Of a stretch of DNA of 64,000 bases, positions 3,068 through 33,100 are shown piece after piece (the first letter of the stretch is position 1; each line of letters begins with the position of its first letter). The stretch is from an uncultured Candidatus Saccharibacteria bacterium (lineage in GTDB: Bacteria; Patescibacteriota; Minisyncoccia; Phycocordibacterales; UBA9973), in the NCBI GenBank assembly GCA_964625065.1, contig CAZUZL010000003.1, positions 1,730 through 65,729 of the forward strand. Reading direction: 5' to 3'. The notes under the pieces are model-generated. The model worked only from the letters and a program-made list of their open reading frames with translations, did not search any database and had not been told where the DNA came from. The position numbers and the translations under genes are program-made.

Positions 3068-3633
3068 TGCTATATACAGGCAAGGGTGACAAAGGAACAA
3101 CTAAACTTTTCGACTCACCATCTGGTGTGCGTGTTTCTAAATCAGACATATTGTTCGACGCATTAGGTACCGTAGACGAATTAAATTCTTTTCTAGGTCT
3201 ATGCAAAGTGAAGAGCCAGTTTGCAGTTATTAGTGAACAGTTTATAGATTTAGTTTCAATAATACATAACGTACAGAATAATTTATTTATTATTCAGGCC
3301 CAATTGGCTGGTGCAGGCAAAAGCATCGAACAAAAAAGTATAGAAGAAATAGAAAAAATTATTAATGATATAGAAACTTCTCTACCACCCATTACTACAT
3401 TCTTTGTTTCTGGGGGTACAGAATTAGCAGCACTTTTCGACACTGCCCGGGCAATATCACGACGTGCAGAACGCGTAGTTATAAAAGTTTCTGAACAAAA
3501 TAGTACTGAAATAAGTAGAACAATACAACCAGAAACATTGCAGTACTTAAACCGGCTTTCTAGTCTACTGTACGCCTGCGCACGGTATGCAAACCATGTG
3601 TCTGGGGTAGGCGACAATGCCCCCACATACTAG
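3067..3633 (+). CDS. ATP:cob(I)alamin adenosyltransferase, PduO-type
   Basis: N-terminus reads MLYTGKGDKGTTKLFDSPSGVRVSKSDILFDALGTVDELNSFLG. Confidence 0.8.
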   Translation: MLYTGKGDKGTTKLFDSPSGVRVSKSDILFDALGTVDELNSFLGLCKVKSQFAVISEQFIDLVSIIHNVQNNLFIIQAQLAGAGKSIEQKSIEEIEKIINDIETSLPPITTFFVSGGTELAALFDTARAISRRAERVVIKVSEQNSTEISRTIQPETLQYLNRLSSLLYACARYANHVSGVGDNAPTY

Positions 3634-5725: not shown

Positions 5726-6319
5726 ATGGAAAATTGGCTTGTGGAATTTGGTGCAAATCATGCATATATAGTATACGTCGTTATTGCTTTTGTTGGTATT
5801 GCTGAAGGCCCTGTTTTATCAGTGTTAATGGGTGTTTTGCTACGCCTGGGGCATTTTAGTTTTTTGCCAGTCTACATTGCGCTAATGTCAGGCGACCTAA
5901 TAGGTGACACTGTTTTGTACATGCTGGGCTACTACTATGGCCACAACCTAATCAAAAAATTCAAAAGGTGGTTTAATATTTCAGAACAAGGTTTAAGCAA
6001 AATAGAAACTTCGTTTCATAAACATAAACACAAAATACTTATTTTTTCTAAACTTACAAACGGTATGGGTTTAGGTATGGTTGTGTTGGCCACAGCGGGT
6101 ATTGTACGCATACCATATGCGCGGTTTATAGTTATTAATTTTTTTGGTCAGTTGGTTTGGTCTGGGTTATTGCTGTCTATTGGCTATTTCTTTGGGCATG
6201 TTTACAGTCAAGTTTCTTCGGTGTTGTCTAAAATGCTGTTATTAAGTTTGTTTGCAATTATATTTTATATTGCTTATTACTATACTAAAAAAATGCGTAG
6301 TACTGTTATTTCTGAATAG
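5726..6319 (+). CDS. DedA-family membrane protein
   Basis: Multi-TM protein with the DedA / SNARE-associated core pattern. Confidence 0.75.
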   Translation: MENWLVEFGANHAYIVYVVIAFVGIAEGPVLSVLMGVLLRLGHFSFLPVYIALMSGDLIGDTVLYMLGYYYGHNLIKKFKRWFNISEQGLSKIETSFHKHKHKILIFSKLTNGMGLGMVVLATAGIVRIPYARFIVINFFGQLVWSGLLLSIGYFFGHVYSQVSSVLSKMLLLSLFAIIFYIAYYYTKKMRSTVISE

Positions 6320-8973: not shown

Positions 8974-9756
8974 ATGCAATCTAAGAAAATTATATCTGGA
9001 ATACTAATGGCAGGTATGTTAGTACCTATGTTGGCCTTTGCTGAAAGCGAAAACAACGGAACACAAACACCAGAACCAACACTAACTAGTGTTACAACAA
9101 CAGCACCTGTAAAACTACGTGGTTTCTGTGCAGACATAACTAAAATCGGTGCAAAAACTGAACAAAAGTTTGCCGAATCAGAAAACAAAAGACTAGACAA
9201 CAAAGACCTTCAAGAAAAGAAAAAAGTTGAACGTCAAAACGTAGTTGACCAAAAACGTATGGAAAACCGTACTAATTCAGATCAGAAACGTGAAGACAAA
9301 AACGGTCAAATGATGGGCAAAGTTTTAACTGATGCACAAAAAACAGCGTTAGCAACATATAAAACAACATTAGACACAGCTGTAGCAACACGCCGCAGTG
9401 CAATAGATGCTGCAGTAAAAGCTTTCCGCGATGCAACTGTAACTGCTATAGCAACACGCCAAACACAAGTAGACGCATTAACTGCAACATACAAAACAGC
9501 AGTAACTGCTGCTGCAGAAAAAGCTAAAACAGACTGTGCTAGTGGTACATCTAGTAAAGATGCGCAATTAACATACAAAACAGCTGTAAAAACTGCTAAA
9601 ACAGCATTAGAAACAGCACGCAAAGCACTTGTAGCTGACACTTCTATAACTGCTGCAAAAACAGTTCGCGACACTGCTGTAAAGGCCGCTGAAGATGCAT
9701 TTAAAACTACAATGGAAGCCGCAAAAGCTACATTAAAAACAGCTTTGCAACAATAA
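8974..9756 (+). CDS. Secreted Ala/Thr/Lys-rich low-complexity protein
   Basis: Signal peptide MQSKKIISGILMAGMLVPMLAFA followed by repetitive TAVTAAAEKAKT-type coiled-coil-like repeats. Confidence 0.5.
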   Translation: MQSKKIISGILMAGMLVPMLAFAESENNGTQTPEPTLTSVTTTAPVKLRGFCADITKIGAKTEQKFAESENKRLDNKDLQEKKKVERQNVVDQKRMENRTNSDQKREDKNGQMMGKVLTDAQKTALATYKTTLDTAVATRRSAIDAAVKAFRDATVTAIATRQTQVDALTATYKTAVTAAAEKAKTDCASGTSSKDAQLTYKTAVKTAKTALETARKALVADTSITAAKTVRDTAVKAAEDAFKTTMEAAKATLKTALQQ

Positions 9757-13575: not shown

Positions 13576-14847
13576 ATGCATAATTTGCGTGCTAATATTA
13601 TACAAACATTAAAAGGTTTTCGTGCTAGAAAAAGCCGAACTTTTTTAACCATGCTTGGTATTATTATTGGTGTTGCTGGTGTTATTATTATCGTTTCATT
13701 AGGGGCTGGTGCACAGCAGTTAATAGTGGGGCAGGTTAGTAAATTTGGTTCAAACATTGTTGCCGTGTCGCCCGGAAAAAGTAACGAAAACGGCCCACCT
13801 GCATCTGTGTTAGGTGTACGTATTACCACACTAACCATGCACGACGTGCAGGCATTAAAAGACACTGGTTCTGTACCGCATGCTACATATTTTGCACCAC
13901 TTGTTCGTGGTAGTGCAACTGTAATTGCTGGACGCGAAAGTGTAGACACACAGTTTTCAGCAACAAGTGGCGAATACCCTTTGGTGCAAAACATACCTAT
14001 TTCAGAAGGCAGGTTTTTTTCTATAGACGAAGGCGCTACTGGTGCGCAGGTTGTGGTACTAGGTTCTGATGTTCGCACCACTCTTTTTGGTACAGGCGAA
14101 GCACTTGGTAAAATTATAAAAGTTACTCGTACAGATGGTATAGAAACAACCAGCGTATTGTTACATGTTATAGGTGTTGCTGCGCCACAAGGTACAGTGT
14201 TTTTCCAAAACCAAGACGACCAAATATATATGCCCATACTAGTTGGGCAACGTCAGTTGTTAGGTATTAGTTACTTAGAATATTTACGGGTAAAAGTAGA
14301 TGACGTGGCATATATAGACCAAACCATATCTGACATGGAAAGTGTTTTGCGTCGCGAACATAACATACGTAATGCACCAGAGGGCGACGATTTTTCTGTG
14401 CGTAGTACAGCTGAACTTATAAAAGTACTAAGTGGTATTACAGACGGCCTACGCATGTTCCTGGGTGTTATGGCTTCTGTTGCGTTGGTTGTGGGCGGTA
14501 TAGGTATAATGAACATTATGTTAGTTACAGTTACAGAACGCACTCGTGAAATAGGTTTACGTAAAGCCATAGGTGCAACGGGTGAACGCATTCGTAACCA
14601 GTTTTTATTAGAAGCAATATTACTTACAGTAACAGGTGGTATTATAGGTATAGTGTTCGGTGTAATTGTTTCTTTTCTTATTACCATTGGTGTTCGTTAT
14701 GCGGGGTATGACTGGGCGTTTATTATTTCGCCAACAGCTGTTAGTTTAGCACTGTTTGTTTCAGTTGCTACAGGTGTTGTGTTTGGTCTGTACCCGGCAG
14801 TAAAAGCGTCGAAACTTAACCCTATAGATGCACTTCGCAAAGAATAA
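13576..14847 (+). CDS. ABC transporter permease, FtsX/MacB-type
   Basis: N-terminal TM helix, a periplasmic domain, and a C-terminal FtsX 4-TM module. Confidence 0.8.
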   Translation: MHNLRANIIQTLKGFRARKSRTFLTMLGIIIGVAGVIIIVSLGAGAQQLIVGQVSKFGSNIVAVSPGKSNENGPPASVLGVRITTLTMHDVQALKDTGSVPHATYFAPLVRGSATVIAGRESVDTQFSATSGEYPLVQNIPISEGRFFSIDEGATGAQVVVLGSDVRTTLFGTGEALGKIIKVTRTDGIETTSVLLHVIGVAAPQGTVFFQNQDDQIYMPILVGQRQLLGISYLEYLRVKVDDVAYIDQTISDMESVLRREHNIRNAPEGDDFSVRSTAELIKVLSGITDGLRMFLGVMASVALVVGGIGIMNIMLVTVTERTREIGLRKAIGATGERIRNQFLLEAILLTVTGGIIGIVFGVIVSFLITIGVRYAGYDWAFIISPTAVSLALFVSVATGVVFGLYPAVKASKLNPIDALRKE

Positions 14848-14851
14848 TTTT

Positions 14852-16099
14852 ATGCATACATTTAACCAAGCAATTCGCGGACTTACCGCATCGAAATCTA
14901 GAACAGCATTAACTATGTTGGGTATTGTTATTGGTATTTCTGTTGTTGTTTTAGTTGTTTCAGCAGGGGAAGGTTTCAAGTCTTATATAAACACCCAAGT
15001 TGCGCAAATTGGTACAAACACAGTAACTATACAAACCCAAGTTCCACCAGACACAAAACGCCGTGCCAACGGTGGTGGCGGTGCAGACCAGGCCAACCAG
15101 GGTGTAGCTATAACAACATTAAAGAAAAAAGACATAACTGATATTTCTAGAATATCAAATGTATCTGGTGCTTATGGAATATCTACTGGGCAGGTAACTG
15201 TTTCGTACGACAACATCATTAAAAGTGCATATGTAATGGGTGCCGATGCTGAACGTTTTGATATAGACAAAGGTGTAATAGCACATGGTCGTGGTTATAC
15301 AAAAGACGAAGACCGTTCGTTAGCTCAAGTAGCTGTATTGGGTAGTAGTTTGGCAGACAATTTGTTTGGACTGCAGGACCCATTAGGTAAAACCATTCGC
15401 GTAGGCGACTACGCTTTTTCAGTGGTTGGTGTGTATGCACCCAAAGGTGGTTTGGGTGGTGTCAGCGAAGACGACGAAATTTTTATACCAGCTTCAACAT
15501 TACAGAAAAAAATACTTGGCATAGATTATTATTTTTATTTAATTGCTTCACTAACTGACAATACAATAGCAGACACTACTTCGGCAGACATCGCCGATGT
15601 GTTACGCAGTAACCACAATATTTCTGACCCAGCCAAAGACGACTTCAAAGTGCAAACCCAGGCGCAGAATGTTAGTACTTTTGCAACTATACTTTCTGCA
15701 GCACAGATTTTACTACTAGCTATTGCGGCAATATCGTTACTAGTAGGTGGTGTAGGTGTTATGAATATTATGTATGTTGTGGTTACCGAACGCACAGCAG
15801 AAATAGGTTTAAAGAAGGCGCTCGGTGCAACCAATACAAACATACTGTTAGAATTTTTAATTGAATCAGTTTTACTAACTGTAGTCGGTGGTATTATCGG
15901 CGTTTTATTCGGCGCGCTACTGGCATATGGTGTGGCGCGTGGGGCACAGGCATTTGGTTTTGCATGGGCGTATATTGTACCGGTGCGTGGTGTTGTTGTT
16001 GCTATGGCTGTGTCGTGTGCTATTGGTATAGGTTTCGGAGTGTTTCCAGCTAGAAACGCAGCTAAACTTAGCCCTATCGAAGCGTTACGTTACGAATAA
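14852..16099 (+). CDS. ABC transporter permease, FtsX/MacB-type (second copy)
   Basis: Same architecture as the preceding gene. ATG at 14852, just after the upstream stop. Confidence 0.8.
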   Translation: MHTFNQAIRGLTASKSRTALTMLGIVIGISVVVLVVSAGEGFKSYINTQVAQIGTNTVTIQTQVPPDTKRRANGGGGADQANQGVAITTLKKKDITDISRISNVSGAYGISTGQVTVSYDNIIKSAYVMGADAERFDIDKGVIAHGRGYTKDEDRSLAQVAVLGSSLADNLFGLQDPLGKTIRVGDYAFSVVGVYAPKGGLGGVSEDDEIFIPASTLQKKILGIDYYFYLIASLTDNTIADTTSADIADVLRSNHNISDPAKDDFKVQTQAQNVSTFATILSAAQILLLAIAAISLLVGGVGVMNIMYVVVTERTAEIGLKKALGATNTNILLEFLIESVLLTVVGGIIGVLFGALLAYGVARGAQAFGFAWAYIVPVRGVVVAMAVSCAIGIGFGVFPARNAAKLSPIEALRYE

Positions 16100-16164: not shown

Positions 16165-16974
16165 ATGATACCAGAACAACAAAAACAGAACATATTGAAA
16201 GCCGGTTTTATACTAGCCGGTATAGTAGCAGTATTTTTAATTACACTTATTTTTACAGAAGTTAAAAAGTTTAACCTATTAGGTAGCGACACACCAGCTG
16301 TAAACGTTATTAGTTTTACAGGTAAAGGCGAAGTTACTGCCAGTCCAGACGTAGCAGTATTAACAGCAAGTATAAACGGCGAGGGTATAACACGTGCAGA
16401 TGCTGTTACAAAACAAGCTGCATTAAAACAAAAAGTTACCGAAGTACTAGCCCCTTTTAAAATTGCAGACAAAGACATTAAAACAGACTACATTAGTACA
16501 AACCCAAAATACGAATACAAACAGCCTACAATATACTGTATAACTACACCTTGTCCACAACCAACAGGTAAAAATGTTATTGTTGGTTATACAACAAACG
16601 AACAACTTGTTATAAAGGTACGCAATGTAGACGATGCAGGTGCAGTATACGACGCATTAAGTAAAGTTGGTTCAGTAGATGTGTCTGGTCCAAATCTACA
16701 AATAGACAACGACGAAGCACTAAAAGCAGAAGCTAGAAAAATTGCAATTGCAGATGCAAAAGCAAAAGCAGAAACATTAGCAAAAGATTTGGGTGTAAAA
16801 TTGGTACGCATAGTTAGTTTCAACGAAGACGGTTACGCAAACCCAATGTACAGTGAATCTGGTGGTAATATGTACGACACTAAGGCCATGGTAGCAGCAG
16901 CACCTACAACAAACATTTCAGTAGGGGAAAACAAGATTACTTCAAACGTAACAATTTCTTACGAAATTCGGTAG
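16165..16974 (+). CDS. SIMPL-domain (DUF541 / BP26-like) periplasmic protein
   Basis: TM anchor followed by a characteristic SIMPL region ending ...NISVGENKITSNVTISYEI. Confidence 0.7.
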   Translation: MIPEQQKQNILKAGFILAGIVAVFLITLIFTEVKKFNLLGSDTPAVNVISFTGKGEVTASPDVAVLTASINGEGITRADAVTKQAALKQKVTEVLAPFKIADKDIKTDYISTNPKYEYKQPTIYCITTPCPQPTGKNVIVGYTTNEQLVIKVRNVDDAGAVYDALSKVGSVDVSGPNLQIDNDEALKAEARKIAIADAKAKAETLAKDLGVKLVRIVSFNEDGYANPMYSESGGNMYDTKAMVAAAPTTNISVGENKITSNVTISYEIR

Positions 16975-17151: not shown

Positions 17152-17781
17152 ATGATAGAAAATAACGAATTAGCGGCCATACTTGAGTCGCACGTAAACG
17201 GTAACATTAGTGCCGAAGCCAAAACCATCTTACAGGACGCGATATACCGCATCAAAAACATCGGAAAATATATTTCAAATGTTTTTAAAAAGGGTATCAC
17301 CCTTACTGTACAGGCCACTGAAACATTTACTGTTTCTGAAAAATCTTTGGAAGGTTTGTGGAAAAACATCATTGCCAGAGAAAAAGATAAGAAAAACCCC
17401 GAACCCTGGTTCGACGACGACATCCTGGGCTGGTTCGATGGCAAGACTATGCCGTCAATTACTGCCGAGTCTTCCTCGACTATCCAACGCTTTACCCAGA
17501 CTTTGACCCATGCACAAATTTTACAGGAAGCCGAAAATCTTTCTATCAAGAAAATTTATAGCTGGTTAGAAGCCATAAAGATCATCGAACAAGCGGTGTT
17601 GATGGGCGAAGTTGATGTTAAAGGTTTGGGTGTTATTGTGTACTTCAAAATAGATGGAGATGATACAGTGTACCGCTTCTACGCCGGTCGCAGCGGCGGT
17701 GGCCGGCTCAGCGTGAGCGTCAACGAGTACTTTCCGAGCTTTGAGTGGGATGCCGGTGATGGTGCTTCTTTTAGCAACTGA
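17152..17781 (+). CDS. DGR target (variable) protein; the C-terminal ~35 aa are encoded by VR
   Basis: The 3' end of the ORF is a near-copy of the TR at 18112-18221, with mismatches confined to TR adenines. No other recognisable domain. Confidence 0.7.
   Translation: MIENNELAAILESHVNGNISAEAKTILQDAIYRIKNIGKYISNVFKKGITLTVQATETFTVSEKSLEGLWKNIIAREKDKKNPEPWFDDDILGWFDGKTMPSITAESSSTIQRFTQTLTHAQILQEAENLSIKKIYSWLEAIKIIEQAVLMGEVDVKGLGVIVYFKIDGDDTVYRFYAGRSGGGRLSVSVNEYFPSFEWDAGDGASFSN
17669..17778 (+). repeat. DGR variable repeat (VR)
   Basis: Aligns to TR over about 110 nt. By manual alignment, roughly 19-20 of about 21 mismatches fall where TR has A (codons AAC/AAT/AAG in TR become TAC/GGT/AGC/TTT/GAT etc. 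in VR). Confidence 0.8.
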
Positions 17782-18111: not shown

Positions 18112-18221
18112 AAAACCGCTTCAACGCCTATCGCAACGACGATGGCCAGCTCAACGTGAACGTCAACAAGTACAATCCGAGCAATGAGTGGAATGCCGGT
18201 AATGGTGCTTCTTTTAGAAAC
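18112..18221 (+). repeat. DGR template repeat (TR)
   Basis: Intergenic copy of the VR, rich in AAC/AAT codons, lying just beyond the avd stop codon and upstream of the RT. Confidence 0.8.
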
Positions 18222-18239: not shown

Positions 18240-18599
18240 TTATTTATATGAGGGAGTTTTTTGTTCTAAAATTTTCTTTTCTATGCCTTTTTTCCAACCA
18301 CCTAACATACGACCTATTTCTTGTAGTTGTGTAGATATTTCAATATATTTTTTCTCTGGTATACATTTGTTTTCAAATGCTAGTTGCAAGAAAAATTTTA
18401 ATGCATCTAGTTTGCTTATAGCATGTTCCAGTCGTATAACTTTACGGTGTATATCTAAATACAATGCAAAAAATATATGTTCAAGTAAATTTAAAAAATA
18501 ATCTTCTATTTTAGAACCCAGTGTGTACCTGTGGGTACGCGGAAAATCGGTGTATAAAACAAACCACAGTTTATATATGCTTTGTGCCTTTTGCAACAC
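18240..18599 (-). CDS. avd: Avd-like four-helix-bundle protein (DGR accessory variability determinant)
   Basis: ...QKAQSIYKLWFVLYTDFPRTHRYTLGSKIEDYFLNLLEHI...IEISTQLQEIGRMLGGWKK matches the four-helix-bundle / 23S-IVS protein family. The true start is uncertain: a GTG at 18599, or an ATG at 18630 that would be in frame only with one extra C in the C10 tract. Confidence 0.7.
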   Translation of the reverse strand: MLQKAQSIYKLWFVLYTDFPRTHRYTLGSKIEDYFLNLLEHIFFALYLDIHRKVIRLEHAISKLDALKFFLQLAFENKCIPEKKYIEISTQLQEIGRMLGGWKKGIEKKILEQKTPSYK

Positions 18600-18611
18600 T
18601 TGCGGTGTTGC

Positions 18612-18621
18612 GGGGGGGGGG
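18612..18621. repeat. G10/C10 homopolymeric tract at the avd 5' end, between the divergent avd and RT genes
   Basis: Ten consecutive G on the + strand; the avd start is out of frame across it. Confidence 0.7.
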
Positions 18622-18647
18622 TAATATTCATAGTACAGTAGTATAAC

Positions 18648-19649
18648 ATGAAAAAGTTTACCAAAACCTACAAACAAATAGTAAATATAGAAAACATATT
18701 TTCTGCGTGGAAAAGTTTTGTCAAAGATAAATCTAAAAAACCAGATGTAATAATGTTCGGCAGTAAAATGATGGACAATGTTTTTGACCTGTATACTGAT
18801 TTGGTAAATAAAAATTATATTCATTCTAAATATAGTCATTTTAAAATAAACGACCCAAAACCCCGCGACATACACAAAGCATCTGTCCGGGACAGGGTAC
18901 TGCACCACTTGTTATATAACGAATTATATCCGTTCTTTGACACTATTTTTATATACGATTCGTATTCGTGTCGTTTCGGAAAAGGTACACACAAAGGCAT
19001 ACAAAGGTTTCGTAGTTTTGTACTAAAAGTTAGTAAAAATAAAACCAAACAGTGCTTTGTATTAAAATGCGATATACGCAAATTCTTTGCAAACATAGAC
19101 CACGCTATATTAAAAAGTATTTTAGAAAAATATATAAATGATGTTGATATTCGGAATCTGTTGTGCAGTATAGTAGACAGTTTTAAAACTAACCAAACTC
19201 CACATAAAAAATCAAGCAGTGAAATAGGTTTACCTTTAGGTAACCTGACTTCACAACTACTGGTAAACATATACATGAACGAATTTGACCAGTTTATAAA
19301 GAGGGAGTTAAAAATACAGCATTACATACGTTACGCTGACGACTTTGTTATTGTTGCAGATACTAAACAGTATTTAGAAAATATATTACCAAAGTTAGAA
19401 AGCTTTCTTATGCAAAATCTAAAACTACAATTACACCCTGATAAGGTTTACATTAAAACTATTTATTCCGGGGTAGATTTCCTTGGGTGGGTAGAATTTG
19501 GTGGGCATAGAGTGTTACGAACTAGTACAAAACACAGAATGTTTAGAAAAATAAAAAATAGTAAAAACATCGAACAAACAAAGACTTCGTACATGGGTAT
19601 GCTGGCCTGGGGTAATGCGAAGAAAATCAGTAGTATTCTTGGTTTTTAA
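18648..19649 (+). CDS. DGR reverse transcriptase
   Basis: RT motifs 1-7: PRDIHKASVRDRVLHHLL, LPLGNLTSQLLVNIYMNEFD (the DGR-type [I/L]GxxxSQ), and RYADDFVIV (YADD catalytic box). About 333 aa with no maturase or endonuclease domain. Confidence 0.9.
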   Translation: MKKFTKTYKQIVNIENIFSAWKSFVKDKSKKPDVIMFGSKMMDNVFDLYTDLVNKNYIHSKYSHFKINDPKPRDIHKASVRDRVLHHLLYNELYPFFDTIFIYDSYSCRFGKGTHKGIQRFRSFVLKVSKNKTKQCFVLKCDIRKFFANIDHAILKSILEKYINDVDIRNLLCSIVDSFKTNQTPHKKSSSEIGLPLGNLTSQLLVNIYMNEFDQFIKRELKIQHYIRYADDFVIVADTKQYLENILPKLESFLMQNLKLQLHPDKVYIKTIYSGVDFLGWVEFGGHRVLRTSTKHRMFRKIKNSKNIEQTKTSYMGMLAWGNAKKISSILGF

Positions 19650-19688: not shown

Positions 19689-20078
19689 ATGAAAGATTTT
19701 GATGTATGGAATAAAGAGAAAAAATACATAGAAAACAAGGTTGTTAATCGAGACCTTTTCTTCTATCCTCGTGAAATATGGTGGTGTTCCGCTGGACTTA
19801 ATATTGGAGTTGAATCAGATGGAAAGAATGAAAATTTCGAAAGACCAATGCTAATAATTAAAAAATTCAATGCCGATATGGTATGGGTGTTACCACTTAC
19901 TACAAAAGAAAAACAAAATAAATACCACTATAAATTAGAACATGAAACAATAAAGTCTTGGGTAATACTTTCTCAAATAAAAACAATAAGCACTAAAAGA
20001 CTATTGCGTAAAATTGGTTCTATTTCTGAATTTGATTTTAAGGAAGTTATTAAAAGAGTAAAAAATACATTATTATAA
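19689..20078 (+). CDS. MazF/PemK/Kid-family endoribonuclease toxin-like protein; no obvious antitoxin gene
   Basis: REIWWCSAGLNIGVESDGK..ERPMLIIKKF, VWVLPLTTK, SWVILSQIKTISTKRL and IGSISEFDFKEVIKRV align with the PemK/MazF fold motifs. Confidence 0.65.
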   Translation: MKDFDVWNKEKKYIENKVVNRDLFFYPREIWWCSAGLNIGVESDGKNENFERPMLIIKKFNADMVWVLPLTTKEKQNKYHYKLEHETIKSWVILSQIKTISTKRLLRKIGSISEFDFKEVIKRVKNTLL

Positions 20079-20082
20079 AATC

Positions 20083-20108
20083 GAAAGCCCCCTTACGGGG
20101 GCTTTCTC
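20083..20108 (+). terminator. Rho-independent terminator
   Basis: GAAAGCCCCC-TTAC-GGGGGCTTTC. Confidence 0.75.
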
Positions 20109-20368
20109 GGAGGCCGAAGCCACTAATACATATAGTATACACTATGTATTATACAATGCAAGTTTATTTGTGGTTACGAATTATAATTAATATATTCACT
20201 ATAATATTCATACAATAAAGGGTCTACAGTGTGATGTTGCGTTGTTTTCTAGGGTATGATATAATACATGCATCAGGGGGCCTAGGGGGTCCAAAAAGGG
20301 CCCAAAAGGCCTTTTAAAATTGTAAAGAAAATTACAAAAATTTATAAGAATTAAATTAAGATTAAACC

Positions 20369-21308: not shown

Positions 21309-21734
21309 ATGGCCGCAAAGAAAATACTTAAAAAAGTAAAACTTCAAATACCTGCAGCAAAAGCTACTCCAGCTCCACCACTTGGACCTGCTCTTGGGCA
21401 AGCTGGTGTTAACATTCAGGACTTTTGTACTAAATTTAACGCCGCTACACAGTCTATGGCAGGTAACATCGTTGGTGTTAAACTAGAAGTTTACGAAGAC
21501 CGTTCATACGATTTCCGTGTAACAACTCCACCAGCTCATGGACTAATACTTAAGGCAGCCGGCCTTGAAAAAGGTTCAGGCAAACCAAATACACAAAAAG
21601 TTGGTAAAATAACAAAGGCTCAAGTTCGCGAAATAGCTGAACTAAAAATGGCCGACCTTAATGCCAAGGACATAGAAGGTGCAATGAAAATTATCGAAGG
21701 TTCTGCACGATCTGCAGGTATCACAGTAGTTTAA
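21309..21734 (+). CDS. rplK: 50S ribosomal protein L11
   Basis: [44 protein letters not shown]. Confidence 0.9.
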
Positions 21735-21743
21735 TACACTTTA

Positions 21744-21777
21744 AAAAACAAACCCCATAAAAGGGGTTTGTTTTTTT
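21744..21777 (+). terminator. Rho-independent terminator directly after rplK
   Basis: AAAAAACAAACCCC-ATAAAA-GGGGTTTGTTTTTTT. Confidence 0.8.
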
Positions 21778-21837
21778 GTAATAAAAAAACCACTACATAA
21801 TTATGTAATGGCTTTGTGATTTTAAAAGTCATGCTTC

Positions 21838-22374
21838 TTAAATAAAATTTTTCCACATCATACTTTCAACCGGATCTTTACCTTGGTCAGCATATTTGGC
21901 ATTTTCTTTTTTATCGTAAGGGTTTATCACAACCCCCTCGATAACATAAAAGATTAATTGACCTATGGGCATACCTGCGTAAATTCGTACAGGCTTTGTG
22001 CTTGAAATTTCAAGCGTCCAGTATCCTTTGAAACCAACGTCTCCCTTGCCGGCCGTTGCGTGTATGTCTATACCAAGTCTACCAGTACTAGATTTACCAT
22101 CGATAAATGGTATGTGGTCGTAGGTCTCGGTATATTCAAGTGTAGAGCCAAGGTATAGGTTACCTGGTCTAAGTACAAAACCTTCCTCTGGTATTTCCCA
22201 AAGTTTAATTTTGTTATGTAGCTTTGCATCTATGACATTGTCTACGTATCCACCTAATTTGTTGCCAAGATGTACATCATAAGAATTACTCCCTAGGTTT
22301 TTTCTATCGAAAGGAGTAATAACAATTCTTTTGTTTTCAATGTTTTCTAGTATTTTACTGTCTGAAATGATCAT
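21838..22374 (-). CDS. dcd: dCTP deaminase
   Basis: NSYDVHLGN, GKSSTGRLGIDIHATAGKGDVGFKGYWTLEI. Confidence 0.85.
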   Translation of the reverse strand: MIISDSKILENIENKRIVITPFDRKNLGSNSYDVHLGNKLGGYVDNVIDAKLHNKIKLWEIPEEGFVLRPGNLYLGSTLEYTETYDHIPFIDGKSSTGRLGIDIHATAGKGDVGFKGYWTLEISSTKPVRIYAGMPIGQLIFYVIEGVVINPYDKKENAKYADQGKDPVESMMWKNFI

Positions 22375-30150: not shown

Positions 30151-33100
30151 ATGCAAAATACAAATAATCAAGAAAATTTAAATAAATCAGCAATATCATT
30201 TCGTGAAGAAGCGGTTTTAGAATTCTGGAAAGAAAATAATATTTTCAATAAGACTTTAGAAAAACCCACTGACGCAGGTGAATACGTTTTCTACGAAGGC
30301 CCACCAACTGCTAATGGTAAACCTGGTATACACCACCTTGAAGCGCGTTCGTTTAAGGACATTATTCCACGTTACAAAACTATGCGCGGGTACCATGTTA
30401 GTCGTAAGGGTGGCTGGGACACACACGGTCTACCAGTAGAACTACAAGTAGAAAAAATGCTTGGTTTAAAATCTAAAAAAGAAATAGAAGAATATGGCAT
30501 AGAGGCATTTAATAAAAAGTGTAAAGAAAGTGTATGGGACTATCTAGACATGTGGAACAGTTTTACTGCACGCATGGGCTACTGGGTAGACATGCAACGC
30601 CCGTATGTTACATACCAAAACAGTTACATCGAAGCCCTATGGGGTGTAGTTGGCCGTGCCAACGAACGTGGTTATTTGTATAAAGACTTCAAGGTTCTAC
30701 CTTGGTGTACACGTTGTGGCACAGCACTGTCTTCACACGAACTAAACCAGCCTGGTGCGTATAAAGATGTGAAGGATCTGTCTGTTTACGTAAAGTTTAA
30801 AATTGTTGGTGTAGAAAACGGGTACTTCGTGGCATGGACTACAACACCATGGACACTACCTGGTAACGTTGCTCTTGCAGTTGGTGCAGATATAGATTAT
30901 GTAGAGGCTAAGAAAGACAATGAAGTGCTTGTGGTTGCCAAAGAAAGAATTTCAGTATTAGGTGAAGGTTACGAAATAATAGCCGAACACAAGGGTAGTG
31001 AAATGGTTGATATGCAATACGAACCACTATACCCATACTTGTCTGAAATCTACCAGCAAACAGCAAACAGCTCAAACTTTGTAAATGCTTTTAAAGTTTA
31101 CGCAGCAGACTTTGTTACTACTACAGACGGTACAGGTATAGTACACACTGCTGTTATGTATGGTGCCGACGACTTTGACTTAGGTACAAAATACGAACTA
31201 CCAAAGTTCCACACTGTAAACGAAGAAGGTAAATTTATTTCAGGTACTGGTTTCCTTGAGGGTAGATATGTTAAAGAAGTAGACGACAAGGGTAAACCCA
31301 CATTGGCAGTGGATATAATAGACGAACTAACTGCACGTGGTTTGTTGTTTAAAAAAGAAAACCACATGCACAGTTACCCACACTGTTGGCGTTGCGACAC
31401 ACCACTACTGTACTACGCACGTTCGTCTTGGTATTTCCGTATGTCTGCATTACGCCAGCAACTATTAGATGCAAATGAAAACATAAATTGGGAACCAGAC
31501 CATATAAAGGAAGGTCGTTTTGGCGAATGGCTAGACGGTATACGCGACTGGGCACTGTCACGCGACAGGTACTGGGGTACACCACTACCAATATGGCAAA
31601 AGTCTGACGGTGGTTATGTTGTTGTCGATTCGTTAGATAAATTAAAAAAACATACACAGACTTCTGGTAATAAATACTATGTTATGCGCCATGGTTTAAC
31701 ACACCACAACGTTGCCGGTACTTGGTCTTGTAATGTAGATAGTAAAGACGGTTTGAATGACACAGGTATAGAACAAGTTAAACAGTCTGCGTCAGCACAT
31801 ACAGATAAAAAAATAGACCTTATAATAGCGTCACCGTTTTACCGTACATTAGAAACTGCAAAAATTGCAGCTGGTGTTTTAGGTCTAAATGAATCTGACA
31901 TTGTTACCGACGCACGTTTAGGTGAATGGAATGTAGGTAGCGAATTTGACGGTAAACTAATAGAAGACTATTTTAAAGTTCGTAACGCCCAGGCTGATAG
32001 ATATAACTTTAAAACAGCCGGTGGTGAATCCTATGCCGACGTATTAGTACGTGCAGGTGCATTTATGTACGATATTGAAAATAAATACAAAGGTAAAAAT
32101 ATATTAATTGTTTCCCATGGTGCACCGACACGTGCCATAGAACTAGTTACTGCAGGGTACACATTAGACACATTGTTCGACGTAACACGAAGTTACAAAA
32201 ACTTTGATAATGCAGAAATACGCAAAGTAAACTTTGTACCACTTCCGCATAATGAAAACTTTGAACTAGATTTCCATAAACCATTTATAGACAATGTAGA
32301 ACTAGTAGATGAATCCGGAAACAAAATGGTTCGAACAAAAGAAGTTATGGACGTATGGTTCGACTCTGGGTCTATGCCATATGCCCAGTCACACAAACTA
32401 GGTGAAGTTATGGATTTTAATCCAGCTCCAGCCGACTACATTTCTGAAGCTATAGACCAAACACGTGGTTGGTTCTATACATTGCATGCAGTGTCTAATA
32501 TGCTGTCTGACGCGCCACGTAATGCATATAAAAATGTAATTTGTTTGGGCCATATACTAGACGCCCAAGGTTTAAAAATGTCTAAGTCAAAAGGTAACGT
32601 AGTAGACCCATGGACCATGTTCGACAAATACGGAGCCGACACAATACGCCTATGGATGTACAGTGTAAACCAACCAGGCGACAGTAAAAACTTCGACGAA
32701 AAAACCGTAGCTGAATTGCACGGTAAAGTGTTTACACTGCTAGATAACTGTTACAAGTTGTTTGAACTATATAAAGACAAAGACTATGTAATAGGTAACA
32801 CCAGTGTAAATGTACTAGACCAGTGGGTAGTTGCACGACTAAACCAACTAATTTCAGATTCTACAAAGTCTTTGGACGAATATAATATATTTAACCCAGT
32901 GCGTGCACTACGCGAATTTATTGCAGACTTTTCTACTTGGTATATACGTCGTTCACGCGACAGGTTCAAGTCAGACGATGTAGTTGTTTATGGTCCAGCC
33001 TTAGCAACTACACATTATGTATTTACCGAATTAGCAAAATTCATGGCTCCATTCGCGCCGTTCTATGCAGAAGATTTGTGGCAGAAAATACGCGACGAAA

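Follow-up and report, generated by a model that had tools for sequence, protein, structure and literature searches.

The locus described here raises the question of whether a toxin gene that seems to lack a partner is truly solitary, and whether its position beside a diversity-generating retroelement (DGR) has any meaning for its function. The gene lies in a 64,000-nucleotide (nt) stretch of contig CAZUZL010000003.1 from an uncultured Candidatus Saccharibacteria bacterium; this whole stretch was analysed and is called the window below. Identical contigs occur in the samples SRR13208889 and SRR13208906. The gene encodes a MazF/PemK-like protein and follows the gene for a DGR reverse transcriptase (RT). 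MazF and PemK are textbook type II toxins, which are neutralised by a protein. A first-pass annotation had taken the gene for a solo toxin gene followed by a terminator, and had offered an orphan toxin, an RT-associated RNase, or an addiction or defence module hitch-hiking with the DGR as possible explanations. The results presented here point to a toxin-antitoxin (TA) module with an RNA antitoxin: a conserved small RNA gene lies immediately downstream of the toxin gene on the opposite strand, and we estimate, at a probability of roughly 0.7, that the two form such a module, most likely one that acts by cis-antisense pairing. The coordinates of all features are given in Table 1.

The toxin open reading frame (ORF) encodes a real member of the PemK/MazF family, as the first-pass annotation had proposed from motifs that are indeed present. 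Residues 28–126 align with positions 3–107 of the 109 positions of the Pfam profile PemK_toxin (PF02452; E=6.1e-16), and the score of 59 bits stands against a gathering cutoff of 23.1. An AF2 model of the protein (pLDDT 76.6) consists of an N-terminal helix (residues 4–16), a beta core and a C-terminal helix, and shows the SH3-like beta-barrel fold of the MazF/Kid/CcdB type. When the model was compared with the PDB using Foldseek, the top 50 matches were all of the MazF family (MazF, MoxT, YdcE and relatives; probability 1.0, TM 0.6–0.78), the best being the MazF proteins of S. aureus, B. anthracis (MoxT), M. tuberculosis (MazF-mt1) and B. subtilis, with TM about 0.7. Among relatives of the toxin R52-P53 is invariant, T71-T72 nearly so, and S95-Q96 invariant or nearly so; R52-P53 and T71-T72 resemble the 'RPxxV' and 'PxT(T/S)' motifs of MazF. 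By analogy with that family, the activity of the protein is presumed to be that of a single-strand-specific endoribonuclease.

Upstream of the Pfam domain the protein carries an extension of about 27 amino acids (aa) with invariant F4, D5, W7, N8, K11 and K12. Judging from sequence comparison, this extension defines a large PemK/MazF subfamily, which comprises 1,250 clusters at 50% identity (E<=1e-10), nearly all of them aligning from residues 1–4. Members are found in Patescibacteria, Chloroflexota, Proteobacteria, Campylobacterota and Firmicutes and are annotated as 'type II' throughout. The close homologs of the window protein number 346, all from Patescibacteria, and among the 120 listed of these 346 the identity is about 70–93%. 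Neither the window protein nor its homolog pVir0047, described below, matched any profile of PADLOC-DB 2.0.

The hairpin that follows the toxin gene had been regarded as the toxin terminator. It is instead the 3' end of a small RNA gene that lies on the minus strand and has its own sigma-70 promoter; the U-tract at the hairpin (GAUUUUAU) is on the minus strand, and none follows the hairpin on the plus strand. The RNA has the layout 5'-AUUAGU-(GGC UUCG GCC)-UCCGA-(GAAAGCCCCC GUAA GGGGGCUUUC)-GAUUUU, with the two hairpins in parentheses, and its 3' end overlaps the toxin stop codon (20076–20078). A promoter that fires into a terminator 50 nt away specifies, by definition, a small RNA. In the aligned loci of relatives the promoter has the consensus TTGAC(T/A), a spacer of 16 or 17 nt and TATA(C/A)T, followed by six variable bases; the TATA(C/A)T hexamer ends 12 nt before GGCUUCGG in essentially all loci, and conservation sets in at the predicted transcription start. 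Further downstream these loci share AUUAGU-GGC-UUCG-GCC-UCCGA, an approximately 10-bp hairpin whose loop is in many cases of the GNRA type, and finally GAUUUU, a block that is sensible on the minus strand only. The 53-nt stretch 20127–20075, which contains the RNA, folds as drawn with a minimum free energy of -25.2 kcal/mol (z -3.35). A covariance model of the RNA, termed R1, finds exactly one full-length match in the window (76 bits, E about 1e-22), whereas Rfam 15 returned no match of E<=1 at this position of the window and none at gathering score in nine other loci.

Conservation of the RNA was assessed in 24 loci that had been selected by similarity of the toxin protein. Twenty-one of them have the same 22-nt 5' segment, although toxin identity across the 24 loci is only 56–83%. 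The 5' arm of the P2 stem occurs in 38 distinct versions, and in each case the 3' arm matches it. When 31 distinct stems were aligned without gaps, re-registered by trimming the loops to 4 nt after MAFFT had placed a loop-length gap inside the stem, nine of the ten pairs showed double-sided changes (74 cells); not one of 500 shuffles reached the observed covariation, and shifting the partner by one column lowered pairing from 100% to about 60–66%. The 46 G.U pairs counted in the minus sense, against 15 A.C pairs (which are G.U in the toxin sense, and most of which close the loop), favour the minus sense for P2, and the GNRA loop, the UUCG loop and the U-tract exist in that sense only. Because stem and loop lengths differ among loci by non-multiples of three, the block is not a hidden ORF. 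Homologs of 145–170 aa carry C-terminal tails such as KIESPLAGAFSEAEATN or GGFLGGRSH, and the DNA just past the stop codon in the window encodes both strings, in two different frames, which argues that the conserved entity is a nucleotide sequence and not a protein; we therefore rejected these tails as protein sequence and regard them as the RNA element translated in two frames.

The RNA gene is tightly linked to the toxin across relatives. Every one of the 24 protein-selected loci (toxin identity at least 56%) contains exactly one full-length R1 match, which lies directly 3' of the toxin gene on the opposite strand and scores 54–76 bits. A metagenome search with an RNA-sense 21-mer as the pattern yielded 105 contigs with 95 distinct sites; a toxin gene in the fixed convergent geometry is present at 69 of these, 8 are at contig ends, and 18 have room for a toxin gene but no intact one. 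The same 21-mer had no match in viral contigs. At least 7 of the 18 toxin-less sites combine an intact RNA gene with adjacent remnants of a toxin that has suffered internal deletions (loci L055, L071, L094, L113/114, L125 and L137), such as MEKDFDKWNKEKKDVDAKPNFKEVVAKLQNLLKIES in L094, an in-frame deletion product of 76 aa in L137, and MHKDFDQ followed by a stop codon in L113/114. The remaining toxin-less RNA sites adjoin NYN, HicA, HigB/HTH, ParE-like, RhuM or ClpS genes, or directly follow rpoC. An intact toxin gene without an RNA unit was never seen among the toxins examined. Decay would be asymmetric in this way if tolerating the toxin required the RNA while keeping the RNA did not require the toxin.

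Tandem or nearby paralogous modules of PemK and small RNA, each with its own RNA class, occur in L005 (5369–6486), L023, L028, L030 and L032, and three RNA variants lie within about 3 kb in L048. Each module of L005 is followed by a gene for a paralogous large secreted protein, and the tandem-module loci adjoin genes resembling those of type IV secretion systems (PrgI, TraC-like and TraG). The tandem modules with their distinct RNA classes suggest duplication of whole modules and insulation between the paralogs. Small RNAs of class B (L005 at ~5769–5807, L023 at ~3280–3310, L094 at ~6177, L113 at ~4015, L048 and L096) start with ACA (ACAAGU, ACAAAC, ACAAAU or ACAGUU) and have no U-tract after the hairpin; ACA is the classic cleavage triplet of E. 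coli MazF. The linker of class A RNAs contains CCUCC, which is identical to the anti-Shine-Dalgarno core; this core is reportedly cut by some MazF toxins (PMC12274833). Genes for NYN-domain (PIN-like RNase) proteins lie convergent to intact class A RNA genes in L052/L093 (165 aa) and L071 (198 aa), where PemK is missing or a remnant, and may represent replacement of the toxin within the module. In L052 the stretch from the NYN gene to the RNA also contains the degenerate remnant of what looks like a second promoter.

More distant relatives of the toxin have kept the layout with other RNA sequences. All ten paralogs and distant homologs (38–49% identity) are accompanied by an RNA unit that is unrelated in sequence and has the same layout. 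These paralogs and homologs come from Peribacteria, Chloroflexia and two alphaproteobacterial metagenome-assembled genomes, and all retain the N-terminal KDFxxW..K motif. In each unit a convergent promoter precedes an RNA with a short 5' tail and a small first hairpin; some have a middle hairpin as well, and the terminator ends at the toxin stop codon. The RNA sequences differ, with UGCC-ACUU-GGCA, GUCUCC-CUUGUC-GGAGAC, of which a compensatory variant was seen, GCC-UUCG-GGC, and the class B RNAs that start with ACA. Three Campylobacterota plasmids (C. jejuni pVir and plasmids of Nitratiruptor and H. suis) likewise carry a convergent RNA unit with this layout and an unrelated sequence. The R1 model did not match the RNAs of these three plasmids; hence the architecture is common to them and the sequence is not.

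For pVir, published data could be compared with our prediction. The homolog CJJ81176_pVir0047 (134 aa, 37% identity, E 2e-17) has the same N-terminal FDxWNxxKK motif; past it lies an extended -10 promoter on the minus strand, which led us to predict an RNA start at about 31119. A Northern-positive small RNA (sRNA) of 77 nt, CJpv3, was reported by Dugar et al. (2013; PMC3656092) to run from 31119 to 31043 on the minus strand, and differential RNA sequencing gave a transcription start site (TSS) at 31119 with a height of 16164, versus 28 for the TSS of pVir0047 itself (PMC3656092, Tables S5 and S12). CJpv3 is thus convergent with pVir0047, and its mapped TSS is the position predicted from the promoter; it folds into a 6-nt tail and three hairpins, and its 3' end adjoins the pVir0047 stop codon. 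Expression of the RNA has in this way been shown by others for a homolog. A validated RNA antitoxin of pVir, cjrA, is described in two papers (PMC7826846 and PMC10470494, citing Shen et al. 2016, Mol Microbiol 101:909) as an antisense sRNA that belongs, with its toxin cjpT, to a type I system. CJpv2, the sole other Northern-positive sRNA of pVir, has no toxin-like neighbour.

The likeness between the window pair and these systems, cjrA/cjpT and CJpv3/pVir0047, lies in a convergent small RNA that starts just past the stop codon of the toxin gene, has a short 5' tail followed by hairpins, and ends by the stop codon; CJpv3/pVir0047 in addition has a homologous toxin with the same N-terminal motif and no annotated protein antitoxin. 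They differ in that CJpv3 has three hairpins in 77 nt where the window RNA has two in 51 nt, without detectable common sequence, in that the CJpv3 promoter is of the extended -10 type, and in that pVir is a plasmid of another phylum whereas the window copy is chromosomal. The window module is therefore probably a further member of a known but obscure kind, with the anatomy of pVir0047/CJpv3, which is probably cjpT/cjrA.

These observations bear on the possibility that the toxin is a true orphan after all and that the downstream element is a bidirectional terminator served by an unrelated promoter or small RNA, or else a preferred insertion site. The RNA does stand without a toxin at about 18 of the 95 sites, such as those immediately behind rpoC or clpS; covariation of a terminator stem is expected for any terminator, and solo MazF genes such as MazF-mx are known (PMC4803016). 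However, at least seven of the 'toxin-less' sites are decayed toxins, and the unit was present beside every toxin examined, even where its sequence is unrelated, which argues for co-inheritance of a module and not for insertion-site preference. A promoter directed into a terminator 50 nt away also defines a small RNA, and CJpv3 is abundant and Northern-positive. We consider it very unlikely that the gene is an orphan, as first proposed; a conserved convergent small RNA gene, its probable antitoxin, lies immediately downstream.

The claim that no small antitoxin ORF lies on either side of the toxin gene held up when ORFs of at least 20 aa were listed on both strands, since none beside the gene is both non-overlapping and conserved. 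All-against-all clustering of the flanking ORFs of 98 distinct homologs did not uncover a shared protein partner; the largest clusters consisted either of tandem PemK paralogs or of artefact ORFs that run across the conserved RNA element. In the Zambryskibacteria lineage a 69-aa ORF (MSANNLILIKEKTKGIYKVSENNYEPDGEIHNIGTFDSLRTAIEKAEEYITNSEMGVEYGIRFTLKKLN) is located 15 nt upstream of the PemK homolog (L008 5777–5986; L009–L015, L029, L074 and L140); it is seemingly fused to a PemK-like ORF in L105 (~9164–9367), is present as a fragment in L072, and has no Pfam match. Being restricted to one lineage, this ORF was rejected as a general partner, and it could be a lineage-specific extra component. 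A tblastn search of plasmids detected 17 homologs in cultivated bacteria, each of which bears the annotation 'type II PemK/MazF family toxin', and the three plasmids inspected (those of C. jejuni, Nitratiruptor and H. suis) have no annotated protein antitoxin beside the toxin gene. The window toxin shares its fold, its Pfam family and its presumed RNase activity with the toxins of the type II systems MazEF, PemIK and Kid-Kis, but no small protein antitoxin gene is adjacent to it, an upstream co-transcribed antitoxin of the MazE/PemI type being absent, and it has the extra N-terminus. The label 'type II' is probably a misnomer for the N-terminally extended subfamily.

A protein antitoxin could also be encoded in trans, or the N-terminal extension could inhibit the enzyme to which it is attached. 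The former has a precedent in MrpC, which neutralises the solitary MazF-mx (PMC4803016), and for the latter one may point to the acidic/Trp motif DFDxW of the N-terminal helix, the modelled position of which is uncertain (pLDDT 58–67). Against an antitoxin in trans, the H. suis plasmid, which is 5.8 kb in size and has five genes, carries the toxin gene without any candidate for a protein partner, and both proposals leave the universally linked RNA gene unexplained. We regard them, taken together, as scarcely probable.

In the reading that we favour, the toxin would be an endoribonuclease of the MazF/PemK fold with an extra N-terminal helix, and a sigma-70 promoter about 50 nt past its stop codon, on the opposite strand, would fire toward the toxin gene to give an RNA of about 51 nt, in which a 6-nt tail leads into a cUUCGg mini-hairpin, and a CCGA linker joins this to a terminator hairpin with a U-tract over the stop codon. 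A toxin transcript reading past the stop codon would be perfectly complementary to this RNA, and most likely the RNA would silence or destabilise the toxin mRNA in cis-antisense (type I-like) fashion, in the way reported for cjrA/cjpT; the invariance of the 22 nt at its 5' end suggests a further sequence-specific contact, possibly with the toxin protein. The module is mobile, occurring in many genomic contexts, and has landed here between the DGR and secE-nusG-rplK. That the protein is toxic, that the RNA neutralises it, and the mode by which it does so, we infer. Type I-like action is favoured because the convergent geometry is fixed across phyla and because cjrA was published as an antisense RNA.

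Among well-known type I systems, txpA/RatA and bsrG/SR4 of B. subtilis consist of convergent genes for toxin and antitoxin RNA that overlap at their 3' ends, the RNA having its own promoter and terminator, and the window pair is arranged in the same way. The toxins of both B. subtilis systems are small hydrophobic membrane peptides, whereas the window toxin is a soluble RNase-fold protein of 129 aa; the window RNA is also much shorter, with a coding overlap of 2–4 nt. Thus a cis-encoded small RNA that has a promoter and a terminator of its own and is antisense to the toxin transcript is as expected of type I, while the small hydrophobic toxin that is typical of type I, though not universal, is replaced by a PemK-fold protein.

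Several points weigh against the cis-antisense module. The -35 hexamer in the window is weak, TTGCAT sharing TTG alone with the consensus. The catalytic residues of the toxin are not mappable by sequence, as phmmer and profile comparisons with the PDB aligned the C-terminal third or nothing, and an hhalign comparison with B. subtilis MazF aligned at most the C-terminal third. The 21-mer is invariant by construction in the metagenome set, having served as the search pattern, and the stems in the covariation test had been preselected for at least 10 pairs. That cjrA is CJpv3 and that cjpT is pVir0047 we infer as the natural reading of the C. jejuni reports. In the window the RNA overlaps the coding sequence by 2–4 nt only, so antisense action needs a toxin transcript that reads through past a hairpin. 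Furthermore, the 5' part of the RNA and the toxin translation start have no conserved complementarity (mean z ~0, at inconsistent positions), and trans pairing of the 5' part with the translation-initiation region was rejected on this ground. Finally, pure cis-antisense action leaves unexplained an invariant segment of 22 nt beside a freely drifting terminator stem.

One could envisage instead a type III-like mode, in which the partners are the same but the target is the PemK protein and not its mRNA: the small RNA would bind this protein directly, as a pseudo-substrate or inhibitor. The MazF/Kid fold is also that of the ToxN toxins of type III systems. The 22-nt segment stays invariant across toxins of 56–83% identity while P2 drifts, a constraint that antisense pairing does not impose; the RNA 5' segment changes with the class of toxin, and paralogous modules in tandem have distinct RNAs; intact orphan RNA genes persist without a target in cis; and the RNA offers two single-stranded stretches of MazF-binding length, the class B RNAs moreover starting with ACA. 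The strongly conserved RNA sequence likewise suggests recognition by a protein, as in ToxIN, CptIN and TenpIN, where an RNase toxin with a MazF/Kid-like fold is neutralised by a small structured RNA (PMC5086642). The antitoxins of those systems are tandem repeats on the toxin strand, encoded upstream of the toxin, which processes them (PMC5086642); the window RNA, in contrast, is single, non-repeated, convergent and downstream, and its toxin belongs to Pfam PemK and not to the ToxN family. No ToxI-like repeat array was detected near the window toxin, where AT-rich micro-repeats were the only repeats. In addition, a protein-binding RNA would not need a convergent geometry ending at the stop codon, which is kept across phyla, and the C. 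jejuni system is described as an antisense system of type I. We judge direct binding in place of antisense action to be unlikely.

Within the cis-antisense reading, an additional sequence-specific partner of the RNA, possibly the toxin protein, is suggested by the invariance of the 22 nt, the joint variation of RNA and toxin classes, and the persistence of orphan RNA genes. It is conceivable, and we put it forward only tentatively, that the N-terminally extended PemK/MazF subfamily as a whole (at least about 1,250 clusters) is an RNA-antitoxin family with a hybrid type I/III action, in which the 5' segment would bind the toxin.

The gene upstream of the toxin gene is a genuine DGR RT; the template repeat (TR) and variable repeat (VR) of the element differ almost only at TR adenines. 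The toxin might serve the DGR, as an RT-associated RNase or accessory factor co-transcribed with the RT. The two genes are adjacent on the same strand, as first described, with a gap of 39 nt (not 40) from the RT ORF end at 19649 to the toxin ATG and no terminator between them, and two other lineages (L111 and L081) have a DGR beside a PemK/sRNA pair, which is above a naive chance expectation. The three arrangements differ, however. The order in the window is RT, toxin and small RNA on the opposite strand; in L111 it is toxin, small RNA (opposite strand), Avd, TR and a convergent RT (opposite strand); and in L081 a frameshifted toxin gene faces a convergent RT fragment. We collected 101 distinct PemK-like genes, 57 of which have at least 1 kb on both sides, and an RT was nearby in 2 of the 57 (the window organism and L111) and in none of the 29 distinct relatives with flanks of at least 4 kb. 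A profile-guided scan of one genome per species gave 29 loci, and in none of them did the available flanks, up to 8 kb, contain a homolog of RT, Avd, secE or nusG. The contexts of relatives include rpoC-dnaG in the Zambryskibacteria lineage, clusters of type IV secretion-like genes, sometimes with tandem paralogs, TA islands and plasmids. In the window the module lies between the DGR and secE-nusG-rplK; secE/nusG was rejected as a conserved neighbour, having been seen in no relative outside the window organism.

The co-occurrence of DGR RT and MazF-like genes in relatives that the first-pass annotation had thought worth checking is thus not supported by the survey of contexts, and the conserved association with RT, Avd and TR that marks a DGR accessory gene was not found. 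A role of the toxin in the DGR is largely refuted by these counts and by the many other contexts, and we give it hardly any credence. The first-pass annotation itself held that a cognate antitoxin nearby would make the adjacency one of chance; with a probable antitoxin located, the DGR is an unrelated chance neighbour of the toxin module, whereas 'addiction or defence module hitch-hiking' is a fair description of the arrangement.

Table 1. Positions in the window of the toxin gene, the small RNA gene with its parts, and the neighbouring DGR
Feature	Position	Strand	Basis or remark
PemK/MazF-family toxin gene	19689..20078	+	ATG start, 129 aa; ORF, Pfam PF02452, AF2 and Foldseek
Predicted small RNA, ~51 nt, probable antitoxin	20127->20077	-	covariance model R1, fold, linkage to toxins
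Predicted +1 of small RNA	20127	-	7th nt downstream of the -10 hexamer
P1, 3-bp hairpin with cUUCGg tetraloop	20112..20121	-	within the invariant 22-nt 5' segment 20106-20127
P2, 10-bp GC-rich terminator hairpin, GNRA loop (GUAA)	20083..20106	-	covariation, minus-strand terminator scan match
U-tract GAUUUU after P2	20082-20077	-	terminator scan
-10 hexamer TATACT of small RNA promoter	20134..20139	-	alignment of loci
-35 hexamer TTGCAT, 16-nt spacer	20156..20161	-	weak; TTGAC(T/A) in relatives
DGR reverse transcriptase, 333 aa (context only)	18648..19649	+	RVT_1 match
Avd gene	18243-18600	-	bAvd match; NCBIfam score 73.3, just under the cutoff of 80
DGR TR	about 18117-18221	n/a	TR/VR comparison; flanked by the target gene and the avd 3' end
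DGR VR	about 17675-17781	n/a	within the target gene 17152-17781

Some further features of the neighbourhood were recorded. The avd gene of the window is divergent from the RT gene, the two being on opposite strands, and since the longest Avd ORF call (18240–18908) overlaps the RT start, Avd itself probably starts further inside this ORF. Just upstream of the DGR target gene a SIMPL/DUF541 protein (16165–16974, confirmed by Pfam) follows two adjacent, paralogous ORFs of 423 aa (13576–16099), which are putative ABC permeases of the MacB/FtsX type. On the other side of the module, a GC-rich cluster (GGGGGCCTAGGGGGTCCAAAAAGGGCCCAAAAGGCCTTTT) at 20270–20315 stands in the AT-rich spacer upstream of secE and includes a terminator-like hairpin on the minus strand (20311–20299); it could terminate read-through from RT/PemK or be part of a secE leader. 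The spacer between rplK and the dCTP deaminase gene (21733–21953, minus strand) gave sub-gathering Rfam matches to STnc370 (37 bits, E 0.016), IS128 and MCS4, and is probably a terminator-like structure.

In the literature searched we found no general description of a MazF/PemK toxin with an RNA antitoxin and nothing relevant on CJpv3 or pVir0047. Both the small RNA family of Patescibacteria and the association of a large PemK subfamily, annotated as 'type II', with convergent small RNAs appear to be undescribed in that literature. Our results indicate that this large and widely annotated MazF/PemK subfamily is partnered not with proteins but with small convergent RNAs, an arrangement for which the sole experimental precedent is one little-cited Campylobacter plasmid system. 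At the locus itself, the apparent orphan toxin is accounted for and the speculative link to the DGR is removed, and the case illustrates how annotation confined to proteins can produce spurious 'solo toxin' calls. The compact RNA of 51 nt, with its invariant 22-nt segment, offers a test bed for the control of MazF by RNA, whether by antisense pairing, direct binding or both. The locus is ordinary for DGR biology; it is noteworthy for the classification of TA systems and for the small RNAs of Patescibacteria, in which non-coding RNAs are almost unexplored and to which it adds a new family not catalogued in Rfam.

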